Part shown: in pieces, positions 17,817-39,634 of the stretch | Layout: the number at the start of each line of letters is the position of its first letter | How positions within the stretch are numbered: the stretch's first letter is position 1 | From: Ilumatobacteraceae bacterium | GTDB taxonomy: Bacteria > Actinomycetota > Acidimicrobiia > Acidimicrobiales > Ilumatobacteraceae | Assembly: GCA_963719295.1 (NCBI GenBank) | Contig: CAVRBV010000012.1 | Span: 1,764 to 65,763, forward strand | Length of the DNA: 64,000 bases | Reading direction: 5' to 3' | Notes under the pieces: model-generated | The model's database searches: none | Told to the model about the DNA's origin: nothing | What the model saw: only the letters and a program-made list of their open reading frames with translations | Made by a program: the position numbers and the translations under genes

Positions 17817-18881
17817 TCAGGCGGGTGGGGGGCCGCAGCTGGGCGTGGGGTGGAACTCGGTCGGCAGGACGACCTCGTCGATCGGCGCGTCGCCGTCGCG
17901 GGCGTTGAGCGTCGACATGAGCAGGCGAGCGCCGTGCTCGCCCAGCGCGCCGGCATCGCGGTACACCACGGCGATCGGCGGCTGGTGCAGCTCGGCGATC
18001 AGGACGTTGTCGCACCCGACGAACGAGATGTCGGTGCCGATGGCGACGTCGAGCTCGTGCAGGGCGCGGATGGCGCCGGCCATCAGGGTGTTGCCGGCGG
18101 CGATCAGCGCAGTCGGGCGCGGGTCGCGGTCGATCGCCTCGATCGTCGCCCGGTAGCCACCCTCCACGCCGAACGCGCCCTCGACGACCATGCACCGCCC
18201 GCCGCTCGGCCAGAGCGTCTGCTCGACCGCGGCGCGACGGTCACGGGCGGGCAGCGCCGGGCCGCCGATCACCATGGCGAAGTCGCGGTGGCCGAGGGCG
18301 AGGAGGTGCTCGACGGCGCGCACCATGCCGGCGCGGTGGTCGAACCGCGCCGACAGCGCCTTCACCCCCTCGGGCTGGTCGCGGTCGAGCAGCACCATCG
18401 GCAGCTTGCAGGCGCGCAGGGCGCGCACGACGTCGGGGTTGTCCTCCTGGGTGAGCGAGAGCAACAGGCCGTCGACCTGACGGTCCTCGAGCAGGGCGAT
18501 GTTGTCGGCATCGAGGTTGGCGTCGCCCTCGGAGTTGGTGAGCAGCAACGAGTAGTCGTTGGCCCGCAGTTCGCGTTCGGCGCCCTTCACGATGTCGGCG
18601 AAGATCGGGTTGGCGATGTCGGCGACGGCGAAGCCCACCGACATGCTGCGCTGGCTGCGCAGCCCGCGGGCGAGGGCGTTGGGCCGGTAGCCGAGCTCGC
18701 GCACGGCGTTGTTCACGGCGTCGCGCATCGCCGGGCTCACGTCGGGGTGCCCGGACAGCACCCGCGACACCGACGAGATCGCCACGCCGGCGCGCTGGGC
18801 GACCTCCTTGATGCCGGGCTTCACCGCCCGCGTCGTCGCCGTCCTCGCCGGTGACGCGGACTCGTGGTCGTCGGCGTCCAT
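17817..18881 (-). CDS. LacI-family transcriptional regulator
   Basis: IKEVAQRAGVAISSVSRVL HTH, LGYRPNALARGL hinge, sugar-binding domain. Confidence 0.92.
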   Translation of the reverse strand: MDADDHESASPARTATTRAVKPGIKEVAQRAGVAISSVSRVLSGHPDVSPAMRDAVNNAVRELGYRPNALARGLRSQRSMSVGFAVADIANPIFADIVKGAERELRANDYSLLLTNSEGDANLDADNIALLEDRQVDGLLLSLTQEDNPDVVRALRACKLPMVLLDRDQPEGVKALSARFDHRAGMVRAVEHLLALGHRDFAMVIGGPALPARDRRAAVEQTLWPSGGRCMVVEGAFGVEGGYRATIEAIDRDPRPTALIAAGNTLMAGAIRALHELDVAIGTDISFVGCDNVLIAELHQPPIAVVYRDAGALGEHGARLLMSTLNARDGDAPIDEVVLPTEFHPTPSCGPPPA

Positions 18882-18916
18882 CGCGTCAGTCTGGCGCGTT
18901 CGCGTCGCCGGCCTGC

Positions 18917-20065
18917 TCACCGATCGACGCGGTACTTGTCGACGAAGTCCCAGTCGTACTCCCATCCGAGACCGGGACCCGTCGGCAGCGCGACGCACCC
19001 GTCCACCAGCTCGGGTCGGTTGACGATGAGGTTCCACCAGATCGGGTCGCGGTCGGGATGGAACACCTCGAGGTACGTCCCGCCGGGCTGGCTGGCGAGC
19101 AGGTGCGCCGCCACGTGCGGTTCCTCGTGGTGGGCGAGCTCGACGCCGTAGACGTGGGCGAGCGCGGCGTTGCGGCGCCAGTTGGTGGGGCCGCCCGCCC
19201 ACGACGAGTCGAAGTTGCACACGTCGATGGCCCCCGCCTCCATCAGGTCGCGGCAGCCTTCGGGCGAGAGCTCGCTCTGGCCGGCACACACCGGGATGCC
19301 GCCGCGGGCCCGCACCTCGCGCATGGCGCGGGCGTTGTTGGCCCAGCGGCACGGTTCCTCGAACCAGCGGATGCCGACGTCGCGCACCCGGTCGCACAGG
19401 TCGAGGGCATCGGCGAGGACGTAGCCCTGGTTGGCGTCGATGGTGATGACGAAGTCGTCACCGGCGGTGGCGCGGCACGCTTCGACGCGGCGGGCGTCGA
19501 CCGCGGTGGGCTGCGAGCCGAGCTTGAACTTGCAGCCGGCGAACCCCATCGCCACCCACTCGGCGACCTCGTCGTGCACCTCCCGAGCGACATCGACGAG
19601 CGGCCCGTAGTACCCGCCGATGATGTTCACCGGGAGGCGGTCGCGGTAGCCGCCCCACACCTGGTGCAGCGGGCGTCCGAACACCTGGCCGATCACGTCC
19701 CACAATGCGGTGTCGATGCCGGCGAGCGCCACGAGCCCGATGCGGCGATCGCGCAGCTGGTCGAACGTCGCCGGGTAGCCGAGCTCCCAGCAGCGTTCGA
19801 TCTGCATCGCGTCCTGGCCGATCAAGCGGGGGATGATCTCGGTGCGGGCGACGTCGACGATCTGGAGCAGCGTGTGCTCCTCGTCGGCGGCGTAGGCGGT
19901 GCCGACGATGCCCTCTGACGTGTGGACGCGGGTGATCACGGTGCAGCGGTGGCTCATCGAGTAGTAGCTGCCCTGGTAGACGCGCCCGAGGGGCACGACG
20001 AGGGGGATCTGCTCGATCTCGGTGATCGTGACCGCCGGGGCCCCGGCGCGCTCGTCGTGGTTCAT
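18917..20065 (-). CDS. Mandelate racemase/muconate lactonizing enzyme family
   Basis: IDTALWD, KFKLG, DANQGY, WFEEP, GQSE. Confidence 0.9.
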   Translation of the reverse strand: MNHDERAGAPAVTITEIEQIPLVVPLGRVYQGSYYSMSHRCTVITRVHTSEGIVGTAYAADEEHTLLQIVDVARTEIIPRLIGQDAMQIERCWELGYPATFDQLRDRRIGLVALAGIDTALWDVIGQVFGRPLHQVWGGYRDRLPVNIIGGYYGPLVDVAREVHDEVAEWVAMGFAGCKFKLGSQPTAVDARRVEACRATAGDDFVITIDANQGYVLADALDLCDRVRDVGIRWFEEPCRWANNARAMREVRARGGIPVCAGQSELSPEGCRDLMEAGAIDVCNFDSSWAGGPTNWRRNAALAHVYGVELAHHEEPHVAAHLLASQPGGTYLEVFHPDRDPIWWNLIVNRPELVDGCVALPTGPGLGWEYDWDFVDKYRVDR

Positions 20066-20122
20066 CCGGCGAGGCAGGCGAGCGGGGCTGTGGTCAAAGT
20101 CGAGTCCTCGAGTGACAGCGCG

Positions 20123-20201
20123 GGATACGTTTCCAGCAGTGCTGTAGCGGGAAACTCTAGGCGCGACGCGACCGGACGGCAAGATGGCAGCAACCGTTTC
20201 C
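20123..20201. promoter_or_regulatory. Two LacI-type operators
   Basis: GGATACGTTTCC at 20123-20134 and GCAACCGTTTCC at 20190-20201, upstream of the racemase-lacI unit. Confidence 0.65.
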
Positions 20202-20234: not shown

Positions 20235-22420
20235 CTAGGCACCGGGCGGCGGGACGAACGGTGTGGGATCGTCGAAGCGGCGCAGCACGTTGGCGGTCAC
20301 CCGCGACACGTTGTTGTCGTACCCGTCGTGGCCGAGGCTGCCCGCCCAGGCGATCGAACCGACGGCGAACACCGCGCCGCCGTGATCGGTCTCGAAGAAC
20401 GTCATGTCGGCGCGGATCGGATCCTGGGTGCGCGTCGGGTCGGGCAGGGTGTCGAGGATCGACGGCACCATCAGGTCGTAGACGTTGCTGTGGCCGCCCG
20501 ACGACGCCACGACGACGCTGTGCGGCGGCGAGCCCTTGGTGACCTCGTGACGGTCGATCTCGTAGCCTGCGGCACCGCCTTGCAGCACCCCGAAGGCGCC
20601 GATCTCCTCGTCGACTGCGATGCCGTCGAAGATCCACGCCACGCCGCGGATCGGTGCTCGCCGGTGAGCGCCGGTAGAACGTGCACGCATCGAAGCCCTG
20701 GGTGATGAACCCGACACCGATGATCGCGTTCTCCGGGCGTCCGATGTTGCGCCACAACCCACCCGGGCGGCCCGACGTGCTGAACACCCCCTCGGCGTGG
20801 TTGACCCGCCACAGGTTGTCCTGGCCGGGACGGCGCACCTCGACGAGGTCGCCGCGGTGGGCGGGCCGTTCCGCCGCCGAGTAGAACCCGTTGCCGCCGA
20901 GGTACATCAGCCGGCCGCCGCGATGGGTGAACGCGGCGAACGCGTCGAGCTCGTCGCGGGTGAGGTACTCGGGGTGCGAGCCGGTGATCGCGACGCGGTA
21001 GGGGGCCAGGGCGTCGACCCGCTCGGCGTGGAGGTCGTCGTCGGTGATCACGTCGACCTCGATGCCCATGGCGTCGAGCCAGTCGGTGATCATCAGGTCG
21101 AGGCAGAACTTGTACATCCGCCCGGTCGGGCGGAAGTTGGTGACCGGTCGGGCCATGCTCGAGTAGACGACCGGACTGCCGTCGCGGTGCACGTCGTACG
21201 TCGACTTGCCGAGCTCCGGCATCTCCAGCAGGAGGAAGTCGGTGCTGTCGAGCACGGTGAGGCGTGCGTGGGCGAGCTCGTTGAACTGGGCGGTGACCCG
21301 CAGGTGCATGTTGGCGTATGCCGCGTAGGTCGTGGTGGGCACGACGTAGGCCACCGAACGGGCGGGCGCGCCCGGTCCGGGCCGAACGACGAAGGGCACC
21401 CAGAACTCCGGGGTCGAGCGGTCGGCCGGCTCGAGCCGCACGGCGTAGCACGCACTCGGCAGATCCTCTGGGAGGTCGAGGGCGAACGACGGCGACCATG
21501 CGGCGTCGGCGAGGTCGTCGTCGTGGAAGTGCACGGCCGCGTACGCGGCCGGGTCGGCGGTCCACGCCAGGTGCTCGCCGGTCCACGACGCACCGCGCGG
21601 TGCCGCGGGTCGGGTAGTTGACGAGGCGCCCGTCGGCGCCGAGCGGGCCGGTGTCGCGGATCGCCTCGGTGGTGACGTCGCGGGCGAAGTCCCACTCGGC
21701 GAGCGGTTCGTCACCGCCCGGTCTCGGCGAAGAGTCGCGGCCGCTCGAGCTTGCCGTTGAAACACGTCGCCGGGTCGTGGTGGGTGTCGGTCCAGGAGGC
21801 GGCGAGCGTCGAGCGACGCGCCGTCGAGCGTGGCGCCAACCGGCGGTGCGAACGACGCCGTTGCTTCCTCCGGCTCGCGGGCGACGAAGCCCTCGGTCGC
21901 CAGCGGCGCGACGTGCAGCGCGAGCGTGCCGGCGGTGAGGTCGACGGCGACGGCCACGTCGGCCCACGACCGTGGACGCAGCGGGCCGACCGTGACCGTG
22001 GCGAGGGTGTCGCTGCCGAGCCCGACGGTCGCCGTGACGCCGGTGGCGCTCGACGACGAGGTGGAGCGCGGCGTCACTGCCGGCGAGCTCGAGGATGGTC
22101 GCAGTCGCGTCCGCCACGATCGTCGGGAACACCAGCACGTCGAGTCGGGCGGCCGCGGCGAGGGGCAGCGGCCCGTCGATCCGTGCGCACGATCCGAGGT
22201 GGATCGGCTGGTGGCGACCGTCGTGGCGCCCGTTGCCGGCGATGTCGACGGGCGTCGCCTTGAACGCCGGGCCGAGCGGCCCGATGTCGGGTGACACGAG
22301 GCGGAACAGCTGGACGTCGTAGGCGGCGTCGTCCTCGCTGCTGACGAAGAACGTGATCGTCTCGCCGGCGCGCACGCTACGCACGTCGGCGTACCCGAGC
22401 ACGGCCGGAGTGCGCCGCAC
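20235..22420 (-). CDS. N,N-dimethylformamidase large (beta) subunit family protein, several frameshifts
   Basis: GYAD..SV..GETI.F.VSS, AAVHFHDDDL.DA.W, PTTTYAAYAN, STYDVHRDGS, GSHPEY, MYLGGNGFY, RADMTFFET..GGAVF. Confidence 0.85.
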
Positions 22421-22754
22421 GGGCGCGCTCGTCGGCGCTCAGGCTCGCGGGCACGGTGTGGGTACCGGTGCACAGCTCCTCGCCGAACTTCTCGTGCCAG
22501 CGGATGCGGAACACGTGCCACTCGGCCGCCTCGAGGTCGGTGAACGTGGTGTCCCAGTCGAGGATCGGCTCGTACGGCGGGCCGTCGGAGTAGCGCCCGA
22601 GCACCCACAGCCGCTGCGACTCGGCCATGAACAGGAAGTGCTTGCCGCTCATCGGCTGCGAGCGCATCTCGTGCAGCAGCAGCTGCAGCTCCTCGCTGTG
22701 GCGGCCGAACGGGCGGGCCTTGAACTCGGCGGCGAGCTCGGCCGGCGGGGTCAC
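22377..22754 (-). CDS. Dimethylformamidase small (alpha) subunit-like domain, in frame with the upstream hydrolase
   Basis: EFKARPFGRHSEELQLLL..MR, GKHFL, FTDLEAAEWHVFRIRW; directly upstream of the large subunit. Confidence 0.6.
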   Translation of the reverse strand: MTPPAELAAEFKARPFGRHSEELQLLLHEMRSQPMSGKHFLFMAESQRLWVLGRYSDGPPYEPILDWDTTFTDLEAAEWHVFRIRWHEKFGEELCTGTHTVPASLSADERARAAHSGRARVRRRA

Positions 22755-23738
22755 GCCACGGTCGGGCGCCGGGCGCAACGCGGCGGCCACTCGTGCGACC
22801 ACGTCGGCGAACGCTCGGCGCGCCGCACCGGAGCGCCCGAGCATCATGGCGAAGCCGTGGGGGAGCGTCGACGCCTCGTACACCTCGACCGCGGTGCCGG
22901 CCTCGGCCAGCGCCTCGCCGTAGCGGCGGCCGTCGTCGCGCAGTGGATCCCATCCGGCGGTCACGACGAGCGTCCGGGGCAGGCCCGCCTTCGACGGCGC
23001 GGCCATCGGCACCGCACGCGGGTCGTCGCTCGTGCCGGCGTCGCCGAGGTAGTTGCGCCAGAACCAGCGCATCGTGTCGGGCATCAGGCGGAACCGGAGG
23101 TCGGGCCCGAGCTCGACCATCGACGGCGTGTCGAGCGACGTGTCGAGCGCCGGGTACAGCAGCAGCTGGAAGTCGACGCGGAGGCCGCCGTGGTCGCGGG
23201 CGTGCGTCGACACGCCGGCGCTGATGTTGCCGCCGGCGCTGTCGCCGGCGAGGGCGAGCGACGGCGGTACCCATCCGAGGCCGCCGCCGTCGACCCACGT
23301 GGCGACGGTCCACACGTCGTCGAACGCCGCCGGGAACGGGTGCTCGGGTGCGAGCCGATAGTCGACCGAGACGACCACGCATCCGCCGCCCGTCGCCAGG
23401 TGCCGGCAGATCACGTCGCACGAGTCGATCGACAGCAAGGTCCAGCCGCCGCCGTGGGCGTAGACGAGCACCGGAGGGTCAGCGCCGAGGTCCGGCCGGT
23501 AGATGCGCACGCGCACGCCGTCGACGTCGCGCTCCTCCACCGATGCCATGACCGGTGGTGGGCCGGTGAGCTCGGCGTTGACCAAGCCGGAGTTGCGCGA
23601 CTGGGTGAGCGGTTGCTCGTGCACCGGCACCGGTGTGGCGGCGAGCCACTCGGCGAGCAGCGCGGCGGCGTCGTCGTCGAGCACGCGGCCGCCGTTCGGG
23701 GCGTCGCTCGTGGCGGTCGGCGGATCGACGCTCGTCAC
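22751..23738 (-). CDS. HSL-family alpha/beta hydrolase (esterase/amidase)
   Basis: HGGGW, VDYRLAPEHPFPAA, GDSAGG, DPLRDDG, HGF; TAACGT -10 box 7 nt before a GTG start. Confidence 0.9.
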
Positions 23739-23756: not shown

Positions 23757-23855
23757 ACAAACGTTTCCACCACCAACGCCGTCGCGCCGAAGGGCGATGG
23801 TCCCTCGTCCGCGGCCCGGGAGCGGCACGTCCGGGCGGCTCCGCATAACGATTCC
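23757..23855. promoter_or_regulatory. Divergent promoter region with LacI-type operators
   Basis: ACAAACGTTTCC at 23757-23768 and weaker CATAACGATTCC at 23844-23855. Confidence 0.6.
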
Positions 23856-23875: not shown

Positions 23876-24839
23876 ATGCCGGTCCGTTCGCTCTGCTCCG
23901 ACGAGCGTCGCCATCTACGGGGCCGGCCAGCTCGGCACGGCCGTGGCCGGGTTGCTCGCGGCGAACCCGCGCTTCGAGGTGCGCGGCCCGTTCGGACGCC
24001 AGCAGCGTGACGACGCCTTGCGCAGCGGCGCCGACGTCGTGGTGATCGCCACCACCACCCGGCTGCGCGACGTCGCCTCCGACATCGAGCTCGCCGTCGG
24101 CAGCGGCTCCAACGTGCTCGTGTCGGCCGAGGAGTCGGCCTTTCCCTTCATGGTCGACGCCGCCCTCGCCGACGGTCTCGACCGCCTCGCCGTCGAGCAC
24201 GACGTCAGCGTGGCCGGCGTCGGCGTCAACCCGGGGCTGATCTTCGACGCCCTCGTGCTCACCCTGCTCGGCGCCGCGCCGCGTGGGTGCGACATCGACG
24301 TGCGGCGGATCGTCGACATCTCCGGCTTCGGGCCGACGGTCCTGCGTCGCCTCGGCGTCGGGGCCACCGATGCCGAGTTCCACCGCGCCGTCGAGCGCGG
24401 CGACATCCTCGGTCACGCCGGGTTCCCGCAGTCGATGACGATCGTCGCCGACGCCGTCGGCATCACGATCGACCGCATCGACAAGCAGCTCGAGCCGATC
24501 ATCACCCCGACGGCCATCGACGTGCCGGGTCGCTTCCCGATCGAGGCCGGACAGAGCGCCGGCGTCGATCAGACCTACACCTCCTACGTCGACGGGCGGC
24601 CGTGGTTCACCGCCCACTTCTACGGCCACGTCGACCTGCGCTCGCTCGGGCTCGAACGCACCGACGACATCCACCTCTCGCTCGGCGGCGAGCGGTTCCA
24701 GTCGATCCACGTGCGCCCCGGCTTCGGCGCCCAGGTCGGCTCGCAGAACATGACCGCCAACTCGATCGACCGCATCGTCGCCGCCCGCCCGGGCTGGGTG
24801 ACGATCGCCGAACTGGCTCCCGCCTTCCCGGCGCCGTAG
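23876..24839 (+). CDS. 2,4-diaminopentanoate dehydrogenase/native amine dehydrogenase-like oxidoreductase (start approximate)
   Basis: Rossmann IYGAGQLG, NVLVSAEE, GVGVNPGLIFD, GHAGFPQS. Confidence 0.75.
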
Positions 24840-24933: not shown

Positions 24934-24978
24934 CGGAATCGAGCTGGTCGGCATTTCGGGACGCCCACTTCAGTAGAT

Positions 24979-24990
24979 GGTAACGTTTCC
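24979..24990. promoter_or_regulatory. LacI-type operator overlapping the -10 box of the E1 operon
   Basis: GGTAACGTTTCC contains TAACGT 7 nt before GTG 24994. Confidence 0.65.
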
Positions 24991-24993
24991 GGG

Positions 24994-25999
24994 GTGAAGC
25001 TGCGCATGCGCCAATCGATCGCCCGAGCCCTCGACGACGCCATGGCCGCCGACCCGACGGTGATCCTGATGGGTGAGGACGTGGCCGTCGCCGAGGGACC
25101 GTTCAAGACCTCGGAGGGTCTGCTCGACAAGTACGGCGCGGCGCGGGTGCGGGACACGCCGATCTCCGAGATGGGGTTCTGCGGCGCCGCCGTCGGTGCC
25201 GCCGCCACCGGGTTGCGTCCGGTCGTCGAGATCATGTTCGTCGAGTTCCTCGGCGTCGCCCTCGACATGGTGGTGACCGAGGCGGCGAAGCTGCGCTACC
25301 TCTCCGGCGGTGCGTACACCGCCCCGATGGTGGTGCGGGCGAGCGTGGGTGCCGGGCTCGGGTTCGGCACCCAGCACTCGCAGACCCTCGAGACGTGGAT
25401 GTACGCCACGCCGGGCCTCAAGCTCGCCGTCGCCTCGGGCGCCAACAGCGCCTACGGGCTGGTGCGCGCCGCGATCGAGGACCCCGACCCGGTGGTGCTG
25501 CTCGAACCCCGGGTGCTGTACGCCGAGCGCGAGGAGGTCGACTTCGCGCCGATCGCGCCTCGGCGAGGCCTCCGTGCTCCGGCGCGGCGACGACGTCACG
25601 ATCGTCGCCCTCGGCCAGACGGTCGGGCGGGCGCTGGCCGCGGCCGAGGGCGCCCCGTGGAGCGCCGACGTGATCGACCTGCGCACGCTCGTGCCGTGGG
25701 ACCGCTCGTGCGTGTGCGAGTCGGTGGAACGCACGGGACGGCTCGTGCTCGTCGAGGAGAGCCCGTACGCCGGCGGGTGGGGCACCGACATCGCCGCCCA
25801 CGTGGTCGGCGAGTGCTTCCACGCCCTCAAGGCGCCGATCGTGCGCTTCACCAGCCCGGACGTGCCGGTGCCGTTCCCGGCGCACCTCGAACAGCAATAC
25901 CTGGTGTCGGTCGCCGACGTGCAGGCCGGCATCACCGAGCTCCTCGCCACCGGACGTCGACCACGACCATGGTGGGAGCGGGAGGGATACGCGTCATGA
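24994..25999 (+). CDS. TPP-dependent 2-oxoacid/acetoin dehydrogenase E1 beta (frameshift at about 25560)
   Basis: MGEDV, RVRDTPISE, GLRPVVEIMF, QHSQ, DLRTL.PWD. Confidence 0.9.
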
Positions 26000-26997
26000 G
26001 CCCGGCCACCACCCCACTGGCGCGGCGGGCGGCGCTCGGCGACCGGTCGCCCGCTGGGACCGCATGCTCGAGATCCGCCGCTTCGAGGACCGCATCAAGG
26101 AGCTCTTCGCCGAGGGTCTGATCCACGGCACGACGCACACATGTCAGGGCCAGGAGGCGGTGTCGGTCGGCCTCGCCACCGCCGTGCCACCGAGCGACCA
26201 CGTGTGCTGCACCTACCGCGGCCACGGCCACGCCTTCGCCCTCGGCATGACGCTCGACTCGGTCCTCGGCGAGATCTCCGGCCGCACGGTCGGCACCATC
26301 GGTGGCGTCGGCGGCTCGATGCACCTGCTCGGAGCGCTCGGTCGGGCTCCTGCCGACCTCGCCATCGTCGGCGCCGGCATGCCGATCGCCTGCGGCGCGG
26401 CGCTGGCGGCACAGGCGCGGGGCACCGACGAGTGCGCGTCGCCATGTTCGGGGACGGCGCCACCAACATCGGTGCCTTCCAGAGGGGCTGAACTTCGCCG
26501 CGATCTGGAAGCTGCCCGGTCGTGTTCATGTGCGAGAACAACCTCTACGGCGAGTACTCCCGCATCGACCTGACGACGCCGGTGACCGACCTCGCCGTCC
26601 GCGCCGCTGGTACGCGATGCCGGGCGCATCGTCGACGGCCAGGAGGTCGACGCCGTGTCGCCGGCGATGGGTCAGGCGGTGGACCGGGCCCGCAACGGCG
26701 GCGGACCGACGTTCTCGAGATGAAGACCTACCGCTATTCCGGGCACTCGCGTCCGACCCGGCGACCTATCGACCACCGGGCGAGCTCGACGAGTGGCTGG
26801 AGCGTGACCCGATCGAGCTGTACCGCCGCCAACTCGTGGCGGCCGGCTCGCTCGACGACGCCGCCGCCGACGCCATGGTCGCCGAGGTCGAGGCCCGGGT
26901 CGAGGAGTGCGTGACCCGCGTGATGGCGAGCGAGCTCGCCACCGTCGCGTCGATGTTCCACAACGTGTACGCCACGCCGGCGGGAGCGTCCGTGTGA
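25996..26997 (+). CDS. TPP-dependent dehydrogenase E1 alpha (frameshifted)
   Basis: IRRFE, GQEA, TYRGHG, GGSMH, FGDGA..ENN TPP motif, TYRYSGHS. Confidence 0.88.
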
Positions 26998-27095
26998 CTG
27001 CGTTCCCCGGCCACGCCATGAACTGCCTGCGCAGTAGCTGGCCGCTCACTCGCTGGCGCTCGCTCGCTCGCATCGGTGGAAGGGTCCACCCGTGA
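26994..27095 (+). repeat. Family B MIRU-like linker, copy 1 (33-codon mini-ORF)
   Basis: GTGA overlaps with the E1 alpha stop and the lipoyl gene start; peptide MTAFPGHAMNCLRSSWPLTRWRSLARIGGRVHP. Confidence 0.85.
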
Positions 27096-27334
27096 GCGAC
27101 CGACCGGTCGTGCTGGCGCGCCTCGGCGACACGGTCGACGAGGTGGTGATCGTCGAGTGGCTGGTCGCCGTCGGCGCCGAGGTGCAGCCCGGCGATCCGC
27201 TCGTCCGGGTCGAGACCGACAAGGTCGAAGTCGACGTCGAGTCGCCGTACGCCGGCACCGTGAGCGCACTCTCGGTGGCCGAGGGCGACGAGGTGCCGAC
27301 GGGTGCGACGCTCTGCGTGATCGCCACCGTGTAG
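27092..27334 (+). CDS. Stand-alone lipoyl-domain protein
   Basis: VETDKVEVDVESPYAG with the lipoylated Lys; 80 aa, clean stop. Confidence 0.9.
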   Translation: MSDRPVVLARLGDTVDEVVIVEWLVAVGAEVQPGDPLVRVETDKVEVDVESPYAGTVSALSVAEGDEVPTGATLCVIATV

Positions 27335-30128: not shown

Positions 30129-30130
30129 GC

Positions 30131-31021
30131 GTGCGCCGCGGGGACAGGCGCGTCGTCGGGTCGTCCGGCGCCAGCCGGGGCCGCTCATCGCCGGCGTCGT
30201 GCTGCTGACCCCCTTCCTGTTGTTCTGCATCGTGCCGGGCCTCTTCCGCCGCACGACCCGCTGCGCATCGAGGCCATCCCGCTGGAGGGTCCCTCGCGCA
30301 CGTACTGGCTGGGCACCGACGAGGTGGACGCGACCTGCTCAGCCGCAGCATCTACACGGGCGCGCAACGACGTCCTCGTCAGCCTCGCCTCGGCGTTCAT
30401 CGCCTTCACGCTCGGCACCACGATCGGGCTGTTCTCCGGGTACGTCGGCGGCAAGGTCGACACCGTGATGATCCGCGTCGTCGACGTGCTGCTGTCGTTC
30501 CCGACGATCGTGCTGGCGCTGTTCCTGATCGTCGTGATCGGTCGCGAGCAGTGGGTGCAGGTGCTCGCCATCGCCCTCGTGATGATGCCGTCGATGGCCC
30601 GTTTCAGCCGCGGCACCGGCCTGGTGCTGCGCAACCGTGGGTACGTCGAGGCGGCGCGCCTGGCCGGCGCCGCGGCGCCACGTGCTCCGTCACCACGTGC
30701 TGCCCAACTCGCTGCCGACCCTGCTGGTCGCAGCGAGCGTGCTCGCCGCCAGCGCCGTGCTCATCTCGGCGTCGCTCAGCTACCTCGGCCTCGGCGCCCA
30801 ACCGCCCGATCCGAGCTGGGGAACATGCTGCGCTCGGCGTACGGCGTGGTGTACGAGGCGCCGCTGTTCGGGCTCGGGCCGGGCGTGTGCGTCACGATCG
30901 TCGCCGGCGCCTACATCCTGATCGGCGAGGGCCTGCGCCGCAAGTACCGCGCCGAGGCTACGTCACCCCCGCCGGGGCCCGCGCCGGGACGTTCGCCCCG
31001 GCGGCCGGGAGCCTCGGGTGA
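30131..31021 (+). CDS. ABC transporter permease (DppC-like), frameshifted
   Basis: WLGTD, GYVGGKVD..IRVVD, YVEAARLAG, HVLPN, LSYLGLG. Confidence 0.82.
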
Positions 31022-33093
31022 CGGCGATGCAGGAACAGCAACAGGCGCCGGCCGCGCCATCTCCGGTCGACAACCGCTGGAGATCGCCTCGTTGTCGGTG
31101 AACTATCGCGCCGGCTCGTCGCTCGTGCACGCCCTCGACGGGATCGACCTCACGGTGCCGGCCGGGCACCGCATGGCCGTCGTCGGCGAATCGGGTTCCG
31201 GGAAGACCACGCTCGGCCTCGCCGTGATGGGTCTGCTCCCATCGAACAGCGAGTTCGACTACCGGCGCCTCAGCGTCGGCGGCGTCGACGTCGACCTGCG
31301 CGACGCCAAGCAGATGCGTTCGCTGCGCGGCAACCGGGTGTCGATGGTGTTCCAGGACGCCAAGGCCGCCCTCGACCCGGTGCGCACCATCGGCAGCCAG
31401 CTCAACGAGCCGCTGCGCGTCCACCGCATCGTCGACCGCAAGCAGCGCGACGCCGAGGTCGAGCGGCTGTTGGGCGCCGTCGAGATCCGCCGGCCGGCGC
31501 AGGTGGCCCGGCAGTACCCCCACGAGCTGTCGGGCGGCATGCGCCAGCGGGCGATGATCGCCATGGCCCTCGCCGGGCGGCCGTCGCTGCTGATCGCCGA
31601 CGAGCCCACCAGTGCGCTCGACGTCACCACCCAGGCGACGGTGATCGACCTGATCCGCCGGGTCGGCGACGACGGGTCGATGGCGACGCTGCTGATCACC
31701 CACGACCTCGCCCTCGTCGCCGGCTTCGCCGAGACGGTGACCGTGATGTACGCCGGCGAGATCGTGGAGATCGGTAGCGGTCGACGCGCTCTACTCGGCG
31801 CCCGCCCACCCGTACACCCGCGCCCTGCTCGGCTCGATCCCGGGTCTGTTCGACGACCGGGTCGACGAGCTCGGCAGCATCCCCGGCACGATGCCCGACC
31901 TCACGAAGGCGGCGGTGGGGTGCCGGTTCGAACCGCGCTGTCCGGTCGGGCGGGGGCGCGACCTGTGCCGCACCGTCGCTCCGACGCTCGACGTGAGGCC
32001 CGGACGGGGGTCGGGTGCGCTGTCACTTCGCCGGTGAGATCGCGTCGGGCCCGACGGTCGACGAGGTGCCCGTCGTCCTCACGCGCGGTCGGCGCGATCC
32101 GCGAGCCCGGTCGCCGCGCTGACCGGCATCGTCAAGACCTTCCAGCGCGGAAACTGGGGCCGCGCCGCGCGCACCCGGACCGTCGCCGTCGACGGCGTCG
32201 ATCTGGTGGTGGGTGAAGGCGAGTCGGTGGGGATCGTCGGCGAGTCGGGATCGGGCAAGACCACGCTGGCGCGGGTGTTCGTGGGCCTCGAACGCGCCGA
32301 CTCGGGCGACAAGCGCATCCGCGTCGGCGACGAGCTCGTCGCCACCGCGACGATCCCGAAGGACTACGTGCAGTTCGTCTTCCAGGATCCCGGCGACAGC
32401 CTCGACCCGATGATGTCGGTGGGCGAGATCATCGCCGAGCCGCTGGTGCTGCGCGACGGCGGACGGGCGTCGCGGTACCGCGCCCGGGTCGCCGAACTGC
32501 TGGAGGACGTCGGCCTGCGCGCCGACATGGCCTCACGTCGACCGATGGAGCTGTCGGGCGGCCAACGCCAGCGCGTCGCGATCGCCCGCGCCCTGTCGAC
32601 CCGGCCGAAGGTCATCATCGCCGACGAAGCCGTCGCCTCGCTCGACATGTCGGCGCGTGGTCAGATCCTCAACCTCTTCTCCCGTCTGCAGGCCGAGCAC
32701 GGCTTCGCCTACCTGTACATCTCGCACGACCTGTCGCTGGTGCGCCACGTGTGCGACCGCGTCGTGGTGATGTACGGCGGCCAGGTGATGGAGACCGCGT
32801 CGACCGACGAGCTGTTCGTCGATCCGCGGCATCCCTACACCCAGGCGCTGATCTCGGCGGTGCCGATCCCGGACCCCGCCGCCGAACGGGCCCGGCGGCT
32901 GATGACGATCCGCGGCGAGGTCGGCGAGGGCGCCGCCGAGCAGGGCTGCGCGTTCCGGACGCGGTGCCCGATCGCCCAGGAGCGCTGCGCCGCGGAGCGG
33001 CCGCGGCTCGACCCGCTCGACGCCCACGGCGTCGCCTGCCACTTCGCCGCCGAGGCCGCGGCCCGCTACGTGCGCGCCGGGAGCGCGCCGTGA
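31018..33093 (+). CDS. Dipeptide-type ABC ATP-binding protein with two ATPase domains (single gene or pair)
   Basis: Two GESGSGKT Walker A motifs, LSGGMRQR and LSGGQRQR, HPYT, Cys-rich tails. Confidence 0.88.
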
Positions 33094-33854
33094 GCTGGGA
33101 CCTCGGCTCGGGCCTGGAGGGCCGCGGTGTGATCGTCACCGGCGCGGCGAGCGGCATCGGTCGGGCGACGGCGCAGGCGATGGCGGCCGCCGGCGCACGT
33201 GTCGCCGCCCTCGACCGCGACGCCACCGGACTGGAGACGACGGTCGCCGGCCTCGACGGCGACGGCCACCTCGCCCTGACGTTCGACCTCGCCGACGCCG
33301 GAGCGATCGAGCCGCTCGTGCGATCGGCCGCCGACGGGCTCGGCGACCTATGGGCGCTCGCCCATGTCGCCGCGGTGCTGCGCCGCCAGCGCGTCGAGGA
33401 GGTCACCGAGGCGGATTTCGATCTGCAGACCACCGTCAACCTCAAGGCGACGTTCTTCCTCGACCGCGCCGTCGGGAGCCTGCTCGTCGGACGAGGTGGT
33501 GGCGGACGGATCGTCAACTTCACCTCCGGCGCCTTCCTCACCGGCGCACTGTCGGGGAGCGACGCCTACGTCGCCACCAAGGGCGGCGTCGTGACGATGA
33601 CGCGCAGCTTCGCCAAGCAGTACGGCCGGCACGGGATCACGGTCAACGTGATCTCGCCGGGTCAGATCGACACGCCGATGCAGCACATCGACAATCCGGC
33701 CGAGGTCGTCGAGGCGGCGATCCAGGCGTGTCCGATGCGCCGGATCGGCCAGCCCGAGGAGGTGGCCGCCGCCGTCGTGTTCCTCGCCAGCCGCCATGCC
33801 AGCTTCGTCAACGGCGCCACGCTGACGGTGAGCGGCGGCTCGGTGATGCACTGA
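33090..33854 (+). CDS. SDR-family oxidoreductase
   Basis: TGAASGIG, YVATK, VNVISPG. Confidence 0.9.
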   Translation: MSWDLGSGLEGRGVIVTGAASGIGRATAQAMAAAGARVAALDRDATGLETTVAGLDGDGHLALTFDLADAGAIEPLVRSAADGLGDLWALAHVAAVLRRQRVEEVTEADFDLQTTVNLKATFFLDRAVGSLLVGRGGGGRIVNFTSGAFLTGALSGSDAYVATKGGVVTMTRSFAKQYGRHGITVNVISPGQIDTPMQHIDNPAEVVEAAIQACPMRRIGQPEEVAAAVVFLASRHASFVNGATLTVSGGSVMH

Positions 33855-33864
33855 CGGGATCGCC

Positions 33865-35174
33865 ATGGTGGAGGTGATCACCAGCGCGGCGGCCGACGCC
33901 GCGCAGGCCCGTGTCGCCGGCGCGCTGCGCGCCCGGGGTATGTGCCGGGCGACCGGGTGGCGTTGTGCCTGCCGACGTCGGCGGCGTTGCTCCATGCGAT
34001 CGGGGGTGCGCTGCGGTCGGGCGTGGTGCCCGTCATCGTCAATCACGCCCTGCTCCCCGTCGAACGCGAGGTCATCCGCCAGGATGCCGACGCCCGTGAG
34101 TGGGTCGACGATGCGGTCCGGCTCGGCGAGCTCGGCGCCGGGCCGATGGCCGAGCTGGCGCCGTTCCCGCTCGCCCGGCCGATGCACTACACGTCGGGGA
34201 CGACCGGTCGGCCCAAGGGTGTGTGGAGTGGCGTGCTCAGCGAGACCGACGCCGAGCGGGTGGTCGGCGAGGAGGTGGAGCAATGGCAGCTCGAGGCCGC
34301 CGACGTGCACCTCGTGTGCTCGCCCTTGCAGCACTCGGCGCCGATCCGCTTCGCCCTCAACACGCTCCTCGCCGGCGGCACCGTGGTGCTGCCCGGCCCG
34401 TTCAGCGTCGACGGCGTGCTCGACGCGGTCACGGCGCACGGCGTCACGACGGCGTTCTGCACGCCCGCCCACCTGCAACGTCTCGACGACGCCGGGTCCC
34501 TTGGCGCCCTGGCGTCGTTGCGGTTGGTGGCCCACGCCGGCGCGCCCTGCCCCGAGCCACTCAAGCGCCGGGCGATCGAGGCCGTCGGTGTCACCCGGTT
34601 GTGGGAGTTCTACGGATCGACCGAGGGTCAGTTCACCGTGTGCGCGTCCGGCGATTGGTTGGAGCGTCCGGGTACGGTCGGGCGCGCCCGGGCCGGGCGG
34701 TCGTTGGAGGTCGACGGTGACGGGGCGGTGTGGTGCCGCACGCCGTCGTGGGCGCGCTGGGAGTACTGGCGCGATCCCGAGCGCACCGCGGCGGCATGGC
34801 GGAGCGACGCCTTCACGGTCGGCGACCTCGGCCGCCTCGACGATGACGGCTTCCTCTTCCTGTCGGGGCGGCGCAGCGACCTGATCATCACCGGCGGGGT
34901 GAACGTCTACCCCGCCGAGGTGGAACAGGCGCTCGGGGAACTGCGTGGCGTCGACGAGGTCGTGGTGTTCGGACGCCCCGACGAGCGGTGGGGTCAGCGG
35001 GTGTGCGCGGCCGTCGTCGGACGGGTGACCGCCGACGAGGTGGTGTCGTTCGCCGCCGGGCGGCTGGCGCCGTACAAGCGCCCGAAGGAGGTGCACCTGG
35101 TCGCCGAGATCCCACGGGTCGGCCTGGCCAAGGTGCGTCGCCACCTGCTCGCCGCCGAGCTCGGGCTGGAGTGA
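33865..35174 (+). CDS. AMP-binding acyl-CoA ligase-like protein (indel at about 33940)
   Basis: YTSGTTGRPKG, YGSTE, GDLG, GRRSDLIITGGVNVYP. Confidence 0.88.
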
Positions 35175-35211: not shown

Positions 35212-35234
35212 TACGGTGGGCTGGAAACGTTCTC
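35212..35234 (+). promoter_or_regulatory. -10 box and LacI-type operator
   Basis: TACGGT at 35212-35217, then GGAAACGTTCTC at 35223-35234. Confidence 0.6.
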
Positions 35235-35254: not shown

Positions 35255-36383
35255 ATGGGCAAGATCGCACGGGTCGATCCGATCTCGGTCGAGTATCCCG
35301 AGCCGAACGACAACGGGTCGCTGCGGCGACTGACGCTGTGTCGCATCGAGACCACCGACGGGGTGGTCGGATGGGGCGAGGCGATCACGATGTGGGCCGA
35401 GGCGTGTCGCGCCACGGAGGTGATGATCGAGGGGTTGTCCGACCTGGTGATCGGGCGTGACCCGCTCGACCACGCGGCGATCTCCCACGAGCTCGCCGAG
35501 CGGACCTGGTGGACGGGACCCGAGGGGATCGCCTCGTTCGCCCGCAGTGCGCTCGACATCGCGCTGTGGGACCTGCGCGGCAAGGTCAGCGGTCAGTCGC
35601 TGATCTCGATGCTCGGCGGCGCCCGCCAGCCGCGTGTGCCGGTGATCGCCTCCACGCACGCCTTCCTGCCGAGCCTCGAGGCCGAGGCCGAGCGCCACGC
35701 CAAGTACGTCGCCGAGGGCATGCACGGGTTCAAGATCGGCCTCGGCAAGAAGGGCGACGCCAACGTCGGCTACGACTTCGACCGCGACGTGCTGTTCATG
35801 CGCCTGCTGCGCGAGGCCGCAGGGCCCGACGCCGACATCATGTTCGACCGCGGCCAGCACCTGCGCTGGGACGTGAGCCGCGCCACGCGCACCACCCAGG
35901 CGTGGGAGGAGTACGGGCTGCGGTGGGTCGAGGAGCCGCTCGAGCCGTGGGACGTGCAGGGCTTCCAGCAGCTGCGGCGTCACTGCACGGCGTTGATCGC
36001 CACCGGCGAACGCTGCTGGACCACCGAGCAGTACCACCGCCTGATCGCCACCGGCATCGTCGACGTCATCGGCTGCGACCCCGGTCGTGCCGGGGGCATC
36101 ACCGGCTTCCGCGAGCTGATCAACGCCGTCGAGCACGCCCAGCTCTGGTTCAACGCCCACGCCTGGAGCAGCGCCATCGTCACCGCCGCGAGCCTCGCGT
36201 TGTCGGCGTCCTCGCCGCGGCTGCCTGCTCTTCGAGCTGAAGCCGCTGGACAACCCGATGCAGAACGAGCTCGTCACCGAGCCGTTCTGGCACGAGGGCG
36301 GGTTCATCTCGCCCCCGGACAAGCCAGGACTCGGGATCGAGGTGATCGAGTCGGTGGTCGACCGCTACCGGATCACGTGGTGA
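35255..36383 (+). CDS. Second mandelate racemase/MLE-family enzyme (frameshift at about 36220)
   Basis: GWGE, LDIALWDL.GK, FKIG, WVEEP, TGE, PGLGIE. Confidence 0.88.
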
Positions 36384-36405
36384 ACGTGATTGCGCGGGGT
36401 CCCGC

Positions 36406-36507
36406 GTGACCGTCATTGCGTTCCCCGGCCACGCAGGCCGCCCCCCAGGCTGGCCGCTCACTCGCTGGCGCTCGCTCGCTCGCACGCTCGGACGAGGTCC
36501 GGCGTGA
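36406..36507 (+). repeat. Family B MIRU-like linker, copy 2 (33-codon mini-ORF)
   Basis: Peptide MTVIAFPGHAGRPPGWPLTRWRSLARTLGRGPA; GTGA overlap at both ends. Confidence 0.85.
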
Positions 36508-37356
36508 CCGTCAAGCTGTCGTGCGCCGACTACGGCTGGCCGTCGGTGAGCCACCGCACGGCGCTGGCGATCGTGGGCGATCTCGGATTCGCCGGCGTCG
36601 ACATCGGCGTGTTCGGTGACGCCACCCACGTGACCGTGCCGTCGGTCGTCGCCGACCCGGCCGGCCGCGCCGCCGCGGTGGGTGCCGACGTGCGGGCCGC
36701 CGGACTCGCCGTCGCCGACGTGTTCCTCACCTCGGTGCTCGAGGTCGACCGGGTCACGCCGACCAGTCGCACCGGAGACGACCAGGAGCAGCTGCAGGCG
36801 ATCTTCCGGGCGATGGTGGAGTTCGCCGGGGCCCTCGAGGCGCCGGGGATCACGCTGCTCCCGGGAGTGGTCGCCGACGGCCAGTCGCTGTCGGAGGCGC
36901 TCGACGCGTCGGCCGCCGGGCTGGCGCCGCTGGTGGCCATGGGTGCCGACGCCGGGCTCGGCGTGTCGGTCGAGCCCCACGTGGGGTCGGTGGTGGAGTC
37001 CCCCGAGGCCACGGCCGAGCTGCTCGACCGGTGTCCGGGACTCACGATCACCCTCGACCCGTCGCACTTCGTCTACGCCGGCTGGACGGTACCGACCATG
37101 CTGGGCCTGCTCGCCCGCACACGCCACGTCCAGATCCGCCCCGGCGCCGACGGCGTGATGCAGGCCAAGGTGCGCGACAACGGCTTCGACCTGGAGCTGC
37201 TCGTGCGCAGCCTGCTCGAGCAGGGGTACGACGGCTGGATCGCCAGCGAGTACGTGTGGATGGAGAAGTGGCGGTGCGACGAGGTGGACAACACGGGGGA
37301 GTCGGGCCGGCTGCGCGCCCTGCTCGAGTCGCTGCTGATGGTCGGTGTGCCAGTGA
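36504..37356 (+). CDS. Sugar phosphate isomerase/epimerase (AP endonuclease 2-type TIM barrel); reads in frame into the next gene
   Basis: VEPHVGS, TLDPSHF, HVQIR, GYDGWIASEY. Confidence 0.8.
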
Positions 37357-38417
37357 GCGATCGAGTGCGCGTCGGGGTGATCGGGGCCGGCGTGTGGGCC
37401 CAGGTGTCGCACATCCCGGCGCTCGCCGCACGCGGTGACGAGGTCGAGCTGGTGGCGGTGTGCCGCAAGGGTCCCGACGAGCTGGCGAAGGTGGCCGAGC
37501 AGTTCGGCTTCCCGATCGCCAGCGAGGACTACCGCGACGTGCTCGACGCCGGCGTCGACGTGTGCGTCGTGTCGAGCCCGGTCTCGCTGCACCACGAGCA
37601 CGCCCTGGCGGCGCTCGACGCCGGCGCCCACGTGTTGATCGAGAAGCCGGTCACCATCGATCCCGCCGACGCGTGGGAGCTCGTGCGCCGCGCCGACGAG
37701 CTCGACCGGCACGTGGTGGTCGCCTTCGGCTGGAACCACCTGCCGACGTTCGCTCGCGCCAGCGAGCTCTGGGCCCAGGGCGGGGTCGGCAACGTCGAGC
37801 ACGTCATGGTGCACATGGCGTCGGGCACCCGACAGCTGCTCGACGGCTCGTCGTTGTACTCGGCCGGACCCACCGACCCGGTCGTCGATACCCGCACGTG
37901 GACGGACCCGGCGATGTCGGGCGGCGGCTACGCCCAGGCGCAGTTGTCGCACATCCTCGGATGGGCGCTCGGCGTCACCGGCCTTCGCGCCGACAGCGTG
38001 TATGCCCTCGGGTTCCGCCCGCCCCACGCCAACGTCGAACTGCACGACGCGATGGCGATCCGCTTCGCCGGCGGTGCCACCGGCGCGGTGAGCGGGGCGT
38101 CGTTCCACAGCGGCAGCCAGGCCGACCGCCACCAGTACGAGATCCGCGTGTTCGGTGACGAGGGTCAGCTCCACGCCGACCTCGAGCGCGACCGGTTGTG
38201 GTGGTGGCGCGCCGATCGCGGCGGCGAGGACATCCCGCTGCCGGTGGACGCCGGTGCCTACCACTGCGTCGGTCCTGTCGACACGATCGTCGATCTCGCC
38301 CTCGGGCGCGACGTGGTGAACCGCTCGCCGATCGAGCTCGGTGCCCGCACGGTCGACGTGCTGGCGGCCGCCTACCGCAGCATGGCGTCGGGCGGGCCCG
38401 AAAGGGTGGGCCGGTGA
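37353..38417 (+). CDS. Gfo/Idh/MocA oxidoreductase
   Basis: VGVIGAG, HVLIEKP, SGGG. Confidence 0.88.
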   Translation: MSDRVRVGVIGAGVWAQVSHIPALAARGDEVELVAVCRKGPDELAKVAEQFGFPIASEDYRDVLDAGVDVCVVSSPVSLHHEHALAALDAGAHVLIEKPVTIDPADAWELVRRADELDRHVVVAFGWNHLPTFARASELWAQGGVGNVEHVMVHMASGTRQLLDGSSLYSAGPTDPVVDTRTWTDPAMSGGGYAQAQLSHILGWALGVTGLRADSVYALGFRPPHANVELHDAMAIRFAGGATGAVSGASFHSGSQADRHQYEIRVFGDEGQLHADLERDRLWWWRADRGGEDIPLPVDAGAYHCVGPVDTIVDLALGRDVVNRSPIELGARTVDVLAAAYRSMASGGPERVGR

Positions 38418-39634
38418 GCGCGGCCGTGGCCGTCACCGGTGCCGACCTGCGCAGCGAGGAGTACTCGCGCGATCCGTTCCCGGTGTGGCGGCGCATGCGC
38501 GACTCCCAGCCGCTGTTGTACGACGAGGTCGGCGGTCGCTGGGTGCTGTCGCGGTACGACGACGTCGTCGCCGTGCTGCGCGACCCGGAGGTGTACACCG
38601 CGCGCACCTATCAGGAGCGGTTCCGGCCGGTCTTCGGACGCACGCTCGCCGAGCTCGACGGGCCGCGGCACATCAAGGAGCGCACGATCGTGGCACCGGC
38701 GTTCGTCGGGCGCAGCCTCGACGGCTACCGCCCGATCATCGCTGCCGCCGTCGACCGGCTGGCCGCCGCGCTCGACGGCTCGCCGACGATCGACCTCGTC
38801 GACGCGATGACGCGACGGCTGCCGCTCACCACGATCGCCGGCCTGCTCGGGTTCCCGCCCGACGACGCCCCGATGCTGCTCGACATCGGCACGCTCATCC
38901 TCGATGGCCTCGCCGACGTCCCCGAGCTGCGGGCCGCCGGCAATGCCGCCCACCGCCGCCTCGCCGCTCACCTCGACCCGATGATGGACGCCCGCCGAAC
39001 GGCGCCGACCGACGACTTGATCGCCAAGATCGTCCACGCCGAGGCCGGGGGAGAGCGACTGACCGACGAGGAGATCCACTCCTTCGTCAGCTTCCTGCTC
39101 GTCGCCGGGGGGCCCACCACCGACATGGCGCTGCGCAACTTCTGGTGGGCGTTGCTGCGCGACCCCGACGAGCTGGCGGCGTGCCGCGACGACCCCGGCC
39201 GCGTCGACCGGGCGTTCTCCGAGTCGCTGCGCCGGGACGGCCCGATCGTGTACGAGGACCGGCGCACCAACGCCGAGGTGGAGTGGTACGGCACCACGAT
39301 CCCCGCCGACAGCGACGTCGTGGTGTGCCTCGGCGCGGCCAACACCGACGATTCCGTGTTCGCCGACGCCGAACGGTTCGACCCCGATCGCCGCGACCTG
39401 CTGATGGGCGTCGAGCGCAAGCCCGGCTACCGAGAGGGCGGCGTGGCCGGGCATCTCGCCTTCGGACTGGGGAGCCACTTCTGCATGGGGTACCAGCTCG
39501 CTCGCGCCGAGGCGGTGGCGGCGACCGAGCGCTTCCTGCTCGCGCTCGACCGGCCGCGCCTGCTGGGCGATCCGCACCTGCACATCACGTGGTACGAGCG
39601 CACGCTCGACCAACTCGCCGTCGAGGTCGGCTGA
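38414..39634 (+). CDS. Cytochrome P450
   Basis: ESLR (ExxR), FDPDR, heme motif FGLGSHFCMG; I-helix AGGPTT. Confidence 0.93.
   Translation: MSAAVAVTGADLRSEEYSRDPFPVWRRMRDSQPLLYDEVGGRWVLSRYDDVVAVLRDPEVYTARTYQERFRPVFGRTLAELDGPRHIKERTIVAPAFVGRSLDGYRPIIAAAVDRLAAALDGSPTIDLVDAMTRRLPLTTIAGLLGFPPDDAPMLLDIGTLILDGLADVPELRAAGNAAHRRLAAHLDPMMDARRTAPTDDLIAKIVHAEAGGERLTDEEIHSFVSFLLVAGGPTTDMALRNFWWALLRDPDELAACRDDPGRVDRAFSESLRRDGPIVYEDRRTNAEVEWYGTTIPADSDVVVCLGAANTDDSVFADAERFDPDRRDLLMGVERKPGYREGGVAGHLAFGLGSHFCMGYQLARAEAVAATERFLLALDRPRLLGDPHLHITWYERTLDQLAVEVG

Follow-up and report, generated by a model that had tools for sequence, protein, structure and literature searches.

A probable LacI-controlled catabolic gene cluster of Ilumatobacteraceae with a dimethylformamidase-family amidase and an amine dehydrogenase

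Gene content of the island and its shared operator

The window analysed here is a 64,000-nucleotide stretch (G000:C12:1764-65763; GenBank contig CAVRBV010000012.1) of an Ilumatobacteraceae bacterium (Acidimicrobiia), known from a long-read metagenome-assembled genome (MAG) of 4.47 Mb in 35 contigs, with 71% GC and a completeness score of 59.8%. Between positions 17817 and 39634 it holds an island of about 20 genes that appear to serve the breakdown of a nitrogen-containing compound, among them a homolog of the large subunit of dimethylformamidase (DMFase). The genes form two divergent sets, one running from a LacI-family repressor to an esterase on the minus strand and the other from an amine dehydrogenase to a cytochrome P450 on the plus strand (Table 1). 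Gene content was read by Pfam searches on long open reading frames (ORFs) and by comparison with clean orthologs, and all the gene types listed in the original prediction, which had been made from the sequence alone, were recovered in the window ORFs. Gene calling based on GC at third codon positions was dropped, being too noisy on this DNA.

Three genomes served as the main references. G002 is a same-genus Ilumatobacteraceae MAG that carries the whole region at ~95% DNA identity and was used for counting indels and substitutions. G031 (DAORTY010000002.1) is an Ilumatobacteraceae MAG of 64% GC from a short-read-style (NODE/cov, Illumina) assembly, and Dactylosporangium sp. CA-233914 (NZ_CP192030.1) is a complete genome record.

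A 12-nt palindrome, defined by the pattern GGAAACGTTTCC with at most 2 mismatches, matches seven times in the window, every time in intergenic or promoter regions of the island, against an expectation of 0.83 and with none of 100 shuffles reaching seven. When at most 1 mismatch is allowed, the 4.47-Mb genome contains four matches, three of them in the island. The G031 sites lie before the gene of the first enolase-superfamily enzyme (enolase 1), in the divergent promoter, before the solute-binding protein (SBP) gene and before the gene of the second enolase-superfamily enzyme (enolase 2), and similar palindromic sites flank genes of the Dactylosporangium cluster. The repressor itself has the helix-turn-helix and ligand-binding domains of the LacI type, and the palindromic operators stand in promoter regions, as in LacI-type regulons. 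The island thus appears to be a LacI-repressed regulon that behaves as one unit. The claim that it forms one catabolic unit gains further from the gene order, which recurs in G002 and G031 and is rearranged in Dactylosporangium, and from the operator common to the promoter regions. Co-occurrence in other genomes, on which the original prediction had staked itself, was checked, and the genes do co-occur.

Table 1. Genes, operator-like sites and repeats of the island, in window coordinates
Feature	Position	Strand	Basis and remarks
LacI-family repressor	17817-18920	minus	Pfam LacI and Peripla_BP_3; 75% identity over 340 aa to G031 ortholog
Enolase-superfamily enzyme 1, acid-sugar-dehydratase-like	18917-20065	minus	MR_MLE_N and MR_MLE_C
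DMFase-family large-subunit homolog	about 20235-22420	minus	DMFA2_C, PF20254; 3 frame changes as assembled
HSL-family esterase (HGGG, GDSAG) with small-subunit tail	22377-23738	minus	Abhydrolase_3, 215 bits
DMFase small-subunit homolog domain	about 22473-22760	minus	C-terminal part of esterase gene
Amine dehydrogenase, AmDH4/2,4-diaminopentanoate-dehydrogenase family	about 23898-24839	plus	DAP_DH_C, 116 bits
E1 beta (thiamine pyrophosphate enzyme)	24937-25999	plus	Transket_pyr and Transketolase_C in two frames; frame change near 25555
E1 alpha	26000-26997	plus	E1_dh pieces in different frames; two frame changes
Free-standing lipoyl-domain protein, 80 aa, VETDKV	27092-27334	plus	Translation
Family-5 SBP	27470-29081	plus	SBP_bac_5 in two frames; frame change near 28599
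Two ABC permeases	29209-31060	plus	BPD_transp_1; tblastn to G031 permeases
Two ABC ATPase domains	31077-33093	plus	ABC_tran and oligo_HPY; single fused 701-aa gene in G031
Short-chain dehydrogenase/reductase (SDR)	33084-33854	plus	adh_short_C2, 174 bits
AMP-forming acyl-CoA ligase-like enzyme	33861-35174	plus	AMP-binding and AMP-binding_C
Enolase-superfamily enzyme 2	35255-36383	plus	MR_MLE; frame change near 36221
Xylose-isomerase-like TIM-barrel protein	36504-37340	plus	AP_endonuc_2; separate 283-aa gene in G031
Gfo/Idh/MocA oxidoreductase	37338-38417	plus	GFO_IDH_MocA
Cytochrome P450	38414-39634	plus	PF00067; 71% identity to G031 ortholog
Operator-like palindromes	20123-20134, 20190-20201		Upstream of enolase 1; three sites at matching G031 position
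Operator-like palindrome	23757-23768		Divergent promoter region; matching G031 site 12984
Operator-like palindrome	24979-24990		E1 beta start; one mismatch
Operator-like palindromes	27363-27374, 27622-27633		Upstream of SBP gene; matching G031 sites 16457, 16681
Operator-like palindrome	35223-35234		Upstream of enolase 2; matching G031 site 24331
Dispersed repeat, copy 1	26993-27090		Gap in G002 alignment; aligns to copy 2
Dispersed repeat, copy 2	36414-36500		Absent from G002

The DMFA2_C domain (PF20254) of the DMFase homolog scores 201-204 bits, where the cut-off is 27, and is spread over two frames as assembled. The motifs TYAAYAN, STYD and HPEY, which the original prediction had picked out, can be read in the translation of 20647-21597, and a GGNGFY motif is present as well. 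The spacing of Y94, Y134, E210 and N236 in this homolog is 40/76/26, close to the 41/81/26 of Y399, Y440, E521 and N547 in the Paracoccus enzyme as given in part of its description (PMC7686228). As judged from motifs and spacing, and not from residue-by-residue or structural superposition, the two-tyrosine, one-glutamate iron ligands and the essential His and Asn appear to be kept. Against the PDB, the window fragment matched 8huy at E 9e-58 and 6lvb at E 1e-49, and a full-length clean ortholog matched 6lvb at E 1e-119 (residues 21-736 to 5-759) and 8huy at E 1e-106. What the original prediction had said of the characterised members of the family, naming DMFase and its iron site, needs updating in this respect: there is a second characterised member, the N-acetyl-(R)-beta-phenylalanine acylase 8huy, and it fits the window fragment better than DMFase does. 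This acylase shows that the DMFase family hydrolyses N-acyl groups on non-alpha amines; no paper on it was found in the literature searched.

The small-subunit-like domain at the end of the esterase is real, as had been proposed, since a profile built from 37 copies matches the DMFase small subunit 6lvb_B at E 5e-8; the ~100-aa C-terminal domain searched alone gave no PDB match. Among 80 DMFase-homolog loci drawn from species-representative genomes, 42 have this domain directly upstream of the large-subunit gene. In the window it is fused to the C-terminus of the esterase and in Dactylosporangium to the large subunit. Seven loci have both esterase and small subunit, and in 6 of them the two share one frame with no stop between them, including loci with contig names typical of short-read assembly and one complete chromosome. 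The Paracoccus DMFase depends on its small subunit for activity, and this subunit borders the entrance for the substrate (PMC7686228); in the fusion, a serine hydrolase would thus sit at the mouth of the amidase.

The remaining enzymes were compared with named NCBIfam models and with the PDB. Both enolases look most like acid-sugar dehydratases, and they score below the named equivalogs of that kind (arabinonate, galactonate, talarate and others), with 165 bits vs 650 for enolase 1 and 153 vs 311 for enolase 2; the entries nearest to the enolase 1 ortholog (4h83/3no1/3msy, E 1e-153) are without named function. The top NCBIfam match of the SDR ortholog is the GolD/DthD subfamily, below its cut-off. 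E1 alpha and E1 beta are both present, and their orthologs reach 310-325 bits with the E1 models of pyruvate dehydrogenase, below the cut-offs. The 80-aa lipoyl protein ends in a clean stop, and its ortholog aligns to E2 models in their lipoyl domains only; no E2 catalytic acyltransferase core lies beside E1 in the island. No E3 dihydrolipoamide dehydrogenase was found among the Pfam matches of the island, the rest of the genome not having been searched for it. The importer has the full set of parts of an Opp/Dpp-type ABC system, namely a family-5 SBP, two permeases and two ATPases with oligo_HPY.

Conservation of a core and variation of a front end

Within Ilumatobacteraceae the gene order persists at about 70% identity. 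It runs unchanged from LacI to P450 in G031, where the ORFs are clean, often overlap at stop and start, and encode proteins of about 55-85% identity to those of the window. The G031 operon (L101:8593-13606) continues past the P450 with genes for RidA, an SDR, a 479-aa ceramidase-like protein, a TauD-family dioxygenase and an amidohydrolase, none of which follows the P450 in the window. The ceramidase-like protein of the relatives has no PDB sequence match and is grouped with neutral-ceramidase family clusters in the ESM Atlas. The rearranged cluster of Dactylosporangium shows about 42-63% identity and comprises LacI, an enolase, a family III CoA-transferase, E1 beta, a CitE-like lyase, a MaoC hydratase, SDRs, ceramidase-like and PTE-family proteins, the TIM-barrel protein, the Gfo oxidoreductase, the amine dehydrogenase, enolase 2, an 872-aa fusion of small subunit and DMFase homolog, and the ABC importer. 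In relatives, the CoA ligase is replaced by a family III CoA-transferase, a CitE/RipC-like lyase and a RipB-like hydratase, a replacement that points to a dicarboxylate end product.

Among 31 sampled relatives, an ortholog of the amine dehydrogenase was found only in the source genome itself (G000) and in G002, and in 0 of 17 high-quality genomes, which makes the cluster an accessory trait of patchy distribution. Proteins with PF20254 occur in 15 of these 31 relatives, in several copies each. The neighbours of the amine dehydrogenase were read at 48 loci found through its orthologs, labelled as Nanopelagicaceae, Planktophila, Microbacteriaceae and (soil) Acidimicrobiia; several are short contigs, so that the following counts are lower bounds. 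The SDR was present at 45 of them, E1 alpha at 39, E1 beta at 38, enolase 2 at 34, enolase 1 and the family III CoA-transferase at 29 each (enolases counted at 45% identity or more), the lipoyl protein at 25, a PTE-family protein at 24, the ceramidase-like protein at 22 and the CitE-like lyase at 19. The DMFase homolog was present at only 8. Conversely, the context of amine dehydrogenase and transporter surrounds only 4 of the 80 DMFase-homolog loci, these being two closely related Ilumatobacteraceae MAGs (L014 and L015), G002 and Dactylosporangium; at the others, the recurrent neighbours are the small subunit, SDR and CoA-transferases.

These two counts do not sustain the idea that the island is built around the DMFase homolog, whose presence at so few loci marks it as an accessory front end. 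Judging from gene neighbourhoods, the conserved heart of the cluster is the amine dehydrogenase together with the E1 and free lipoyl proteins, and the amidase, the esterase and the Dpp-type importer make up a lineage-specific front end.

A core without a DMFase homolog was also observed in a complete 1.55-Mb actinobacterial genome (CP015606.1; L116, 1-16000), with an enolase, CoA-transferase, E1 beta and alpha, amine dehydrogenase, SDR, PTE-family protein, ceramidase-like protein and CitE-like lyase. Beside it lie genes for an MFS transporter, a P450, an Amidohydro_2 lactonase-like protein and a creatininase-family protein.

State of the reading frames and alternative explanations

As assembled, 6 of the 19 island genes change frame when compared with clean orthologs (the DMFase homolog, E1 beta, E1 alpha, the SBP, the ATPase and enolase 2), which is what a decaying pseudogene cluster would look like, with real frameshifts and a pathway dead in the organism. 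The indel to substitution ratio of about 1:9 relative to G002 is conceivable under neutral decay, and not every gene of the genome is hit by errors, the Rpb2_6 match of rpoB lying within a single 1202-aa open frame, so that any assembly errors must be patchy. However, the 665 substitutions relative to G002, counted over 6,133 codons, are distributed over codon positions 1, 2 and 3 as 124:74:467, with 70% at third positions, indicating purifying selection on the island genes. Of the 177 indels, 150 are single-base, the additional base being in the window 76 times and in G002 74 times, and the flanks are as rich in indels as the island. Moreover, essential genes elsewhere in the genome are split as well: two class-I aminoacyl-tRNA synthetase genes (G000:C9:278433-280314 and G000:C25:7520-9347) are spread over different open frames, which points to single-base assembly errors genome-wide and means that fusions, split genes and small ORFs need checking. 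The low completeness score despite only 35 long contigs was taken as a further sign of assembly error. At four indels (26627, 30102, 33859 and 36219) independent short-read contigs agree with G002, with an extra G behind 26627 in E1 alpha and one base fewer at 36219 in enolase 2; an indel in E1 beta, at 25555, was placed by the G002 alignment. These contigs come from soil and rhizosphere runs of other studies, the longest listed piece being 899 nt, and are informative for indel states only, many of their "joints" arising from repeats and paralogs. We therefore regard decay as very unlikely; the broken frames appear to be long-read assembly errors and the island to be intact in the organism.

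The other alternatives concern what the genes do together. The island might consist of unrelated adjoining operons, namely a peptide importer, an acetoin-type E1 and a sugar-acid operon, that do not make up one pathway. There are at least five promoter regions, DMFase homologs occur in other contexts elsewhere, and PF20254 is found in far more of the sampled relatives (15 of 31) than the amine dehydrogenase (2), but the promoter regions all have the same operator, which is otherwise almost absent from the genome, and the modules stay together in two classes of Actinomycetota even where they are rearranged, all of which makes this explanation unlikely. A true dimethylformamidase activity of the amidase, with the island as a route for degrading dimethylformamide or another synthetic formamide, would agree with the metal-site motifs, the small subunit and the best match of the full-length ortholog to 6lvb. 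We nevertheless find it barely credible, given that the window fragment is closer to the N-acetyl-beta-phenylalanine acylase, that no methylamine or dimethylamine utilisation genes are among the Pfam matches of the island, that the genes around it belong to sugar-acid and amine types, and that the family is common in the order, unlike a xenobiotic specialist. Biosynthesis of a secondary metabolite by the P450, the AMP ligase and the carrier-like protein, instead of nutrient breakdown, also seems highly improbable. The P450 does come nearest to a cyclodipeptide-synthase-associated subfamily (its best NCBIfam match, 190 bits against a cut-off of 500), and an AMP-binding enzyme is in the cluster; yet the cluster also has a LacI repressor and an importer that depends on a binding protein, its carrier-like protein is of the lipoyl and not the phosphopantetheine kind, and the Pfam matches of the island include no polyketide synthase, nonribosomal peptide synthetase, cyclodipeptide synthase or exporter.

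Several observations weigh against a single catabolic regulon with a defined substrate. No protein of the island or of its orthologs reaches any NCBIfam equivalog cut-off, so that all step assignments are made at the level of superfamily membership. The similarity of the SBP to opine binders is weak (E of the order of 1e-23). The operator-like site at E1 beta may fall within the coding start of that gene and has no G031 counterpart. In the genome of the window, which is incomplete, no homolog of the CitE-like lyase, the PTE-family protein, the ceramidase-like protein or TauD was found at E <= 1e-15. Finally, the compared loci are kin and were chosen via one member gene, so that their counts are not independent.

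The error-prone assembly also bears on how apparent fusions, split genes and mini-ORFs of the window are to be read, and clean orthologs are better suited for study. Thus, the TIM-barrel protein and the Gfo oxidoreductase form a single 675-aa ORF as assembled in the window and are separate genes or frames in all 3 relatives checked (G031, L108 and Dactylosporangium). The sole indel relative to G002 between about 36.5 and 39.6 kb, at 37343, falls on this junction, where one short-read contig is shorter by 4 nt. The ORF is, as far as these comparisons go, probably two genes.

A GC-rich dispersed repeat of 75-98 nt has more than 100 BLAST matches across the genome. Two copies lie in intergenic gaps of the island, and a seven-unit tandem array with ~84-nt spacing is found at G000:C22:143148-143714. 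At least six indels relative to G002 cluster at 36384-36496, overlapping copy 2. Mini-ORFs at 36380-36507 coincide with this copy and with the indel cluster, and they may stem from the repeat and from assembly errors and not be genes.

Neither a tRNA gene nor a compositional break was found at the edges of the island. To the left of LacI, at 15276-17754, lie genes for an af470-like monooxygenase and two luciferase-like monooxygenases, which are syntenic in G002 and not in G031; in the latter, LacI is flanked by PASTA and VWA genes without relation to the left flank of the window. This loss of synteny sets LacI as the left edge. On the right, a minus-strand proline-racemase-family gene adjoins an FAD-dependent oxidoreductase (DAO) gene split over two ORFs (39735-42430), convergent with the P450. 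No operator motif was found there, and the pair is probably a separate unit of hydroxyproline or D-amino-acid type.

Proposed pathway and comparison with known systems

Taken together, we consider it likely that the island is one LacI-repressed catabolic regulon of soil Ilumatobacteraceae, intact in the organism and broken in frame by assembly errors, which would combine a front end, a core and finishing enzymes. The front end would comprise the Dpp/Opp-type ABC importer, the DMFase-family iron amidase and its small subunit fused to a serine esterase. The core, wide in Actinomycetota, would consist of the AmDH4-type amine dehydrogenase, E1 beta and alpha with the free lipoyl protein, the two acid-sugar-dehydratase-like enolases and the SDR, and the TIM-barrel protein, the Gfo oxidoreductase, the P450 and the acyl-CoA ligase would act as finishing enzymes.

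From the observed gene content, shared operator and conservation we infer an order of steps and a class of substrate. An acylated amino-hydroxy-carboxylate, for example an amino sugar acid or an opine-like compound, would be imported, and the esterase/amidase pair would strip its ester or lactone and N-acyl groups. Dehydrogenases and enolases could then convert the skeleton to a keto-deoxy acid, and the amine dehydrogenase would turn the freed secondary amine into a ketone. Beside that carbonyl, E1 would cleave or decarboxylate the molecule and pass the acyl group to the free lipoyl protein, after which the acid product would be activated with CoA. The N-acyl amino-polyol class of substrates put forward in the original prediction is compatible with the findings and may apply.

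A broader and more tentative possibility is that a large clade of "native amine dehydrogenases" has its physiological role in this cluster, and that the cluster represents an undescribed pathway widespread in Actinomycetota. Here the dehydrogenase would deaminate an amino (sugar) acid, and an E1 lacking its E2 would cleave the product and load a free lipoyl protein. Some lineages would feed this pathway through a two-headed deprotection machine, with the small subunit serving as the tether between a serine esterase and a DMFase-type iron amidase. No description of this combination of genes was found in the literature searched, most subscription journals lying outside its scope.

Few of the DMFase-family amidases, to our knowledge, have a known natural substrate. 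The cluster places three enzyme types, the DMFase-family amidase, the amine dehydrogenase and the E2-less E1 with its free lipoyl protein, in one co-regulated and conserved context, which narrows the search for a substrate. Clean copies, such as that in the complete genome of Dactylosporangium sp. CA-233914, make the function directly testable.

Among known systems, the degradation of itaconate and mesaconate as CoA esters (RipA/Ict, RipB/Ich, RipC/Ccl) resembles the set found in the relatives: their lyase is CitE/RipC-like (140-171 bits) and their hydratase RipB-like (153 bits), and a family III CoA-transferase goes with them. All of these stay below the equivalog cut-offs, and the genome of the window has an AMP ligase, with no CitE-like gene found. 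With opine uptake in Agrobacterium (AccA, AgaA) the island has a family-5 binding protein and a Dpp-type importer in common, and these proteins are the nearest solved structures to the SBP ortholog; they differ in that the similarity is low (E 2e-23 for AccA and 4e-20 for AgaA) and that no opine oxidase is among the Pfam matches of the island.

The E1 module is like the acetoin and 2-oxoacid dehydrogenases in having a heteromeric thiamine pyrophosphate-dependent E1 and a lipoyl-bearing partner, and unlike them it lacks an E2 core, and E3 among its Pfam matches, with the beta gene preceding the alpha gene. In its gene types it may be compared with oadhAB2 of Haloferax volcanii with its lipoyl protein, for which PMC8305020 reports no substrate and excludes pyruvate and 2-oxoglutarate. 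The amine dehydrogenase has the DAP_DH_C domain in common with AmDH4, Ord and the native amine dehydrogenases, and the nearest structures to its ortholog are 6g1m and 6g1h (E 3e-42). It differs from Ord in falling below the equivalog cut-off (NF040740; 194 bits vs 400) and in its context, no ornithine-fermentation genes being among the island Pfam matches. For the G1 group of native amine dehydrogenases, section 7 of PMC11164908, a survey from 2024, states that genomic context gave no functional clue; our comparison with this group is at the level of the family.

The amidase belongs to the same family as the N-acetyl-(R)-beta-phenylalanine acylase (8huy, 8i59, 8i5a), with TYxxYAN, TY, HPEY and GGNGFY shared in the alignment; the acylase is the best PDB match of the window fragment and ranks below DMFase for the full-length ortholog. 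The Paracoccus DMFase, an alpha2beta2 Fe(III) amidase (6lvb), is alike in the full-length alignment, in the spacing of the Tyr/Tyr/Glu/His/Asn motifs and in the small subunit directly upstream. In contrast to that enzyme, the small subunit of the island is fused to a serine esterase, and the genes around it are those of sugar-acid and amine catabolism rather than of C1 metabolism.

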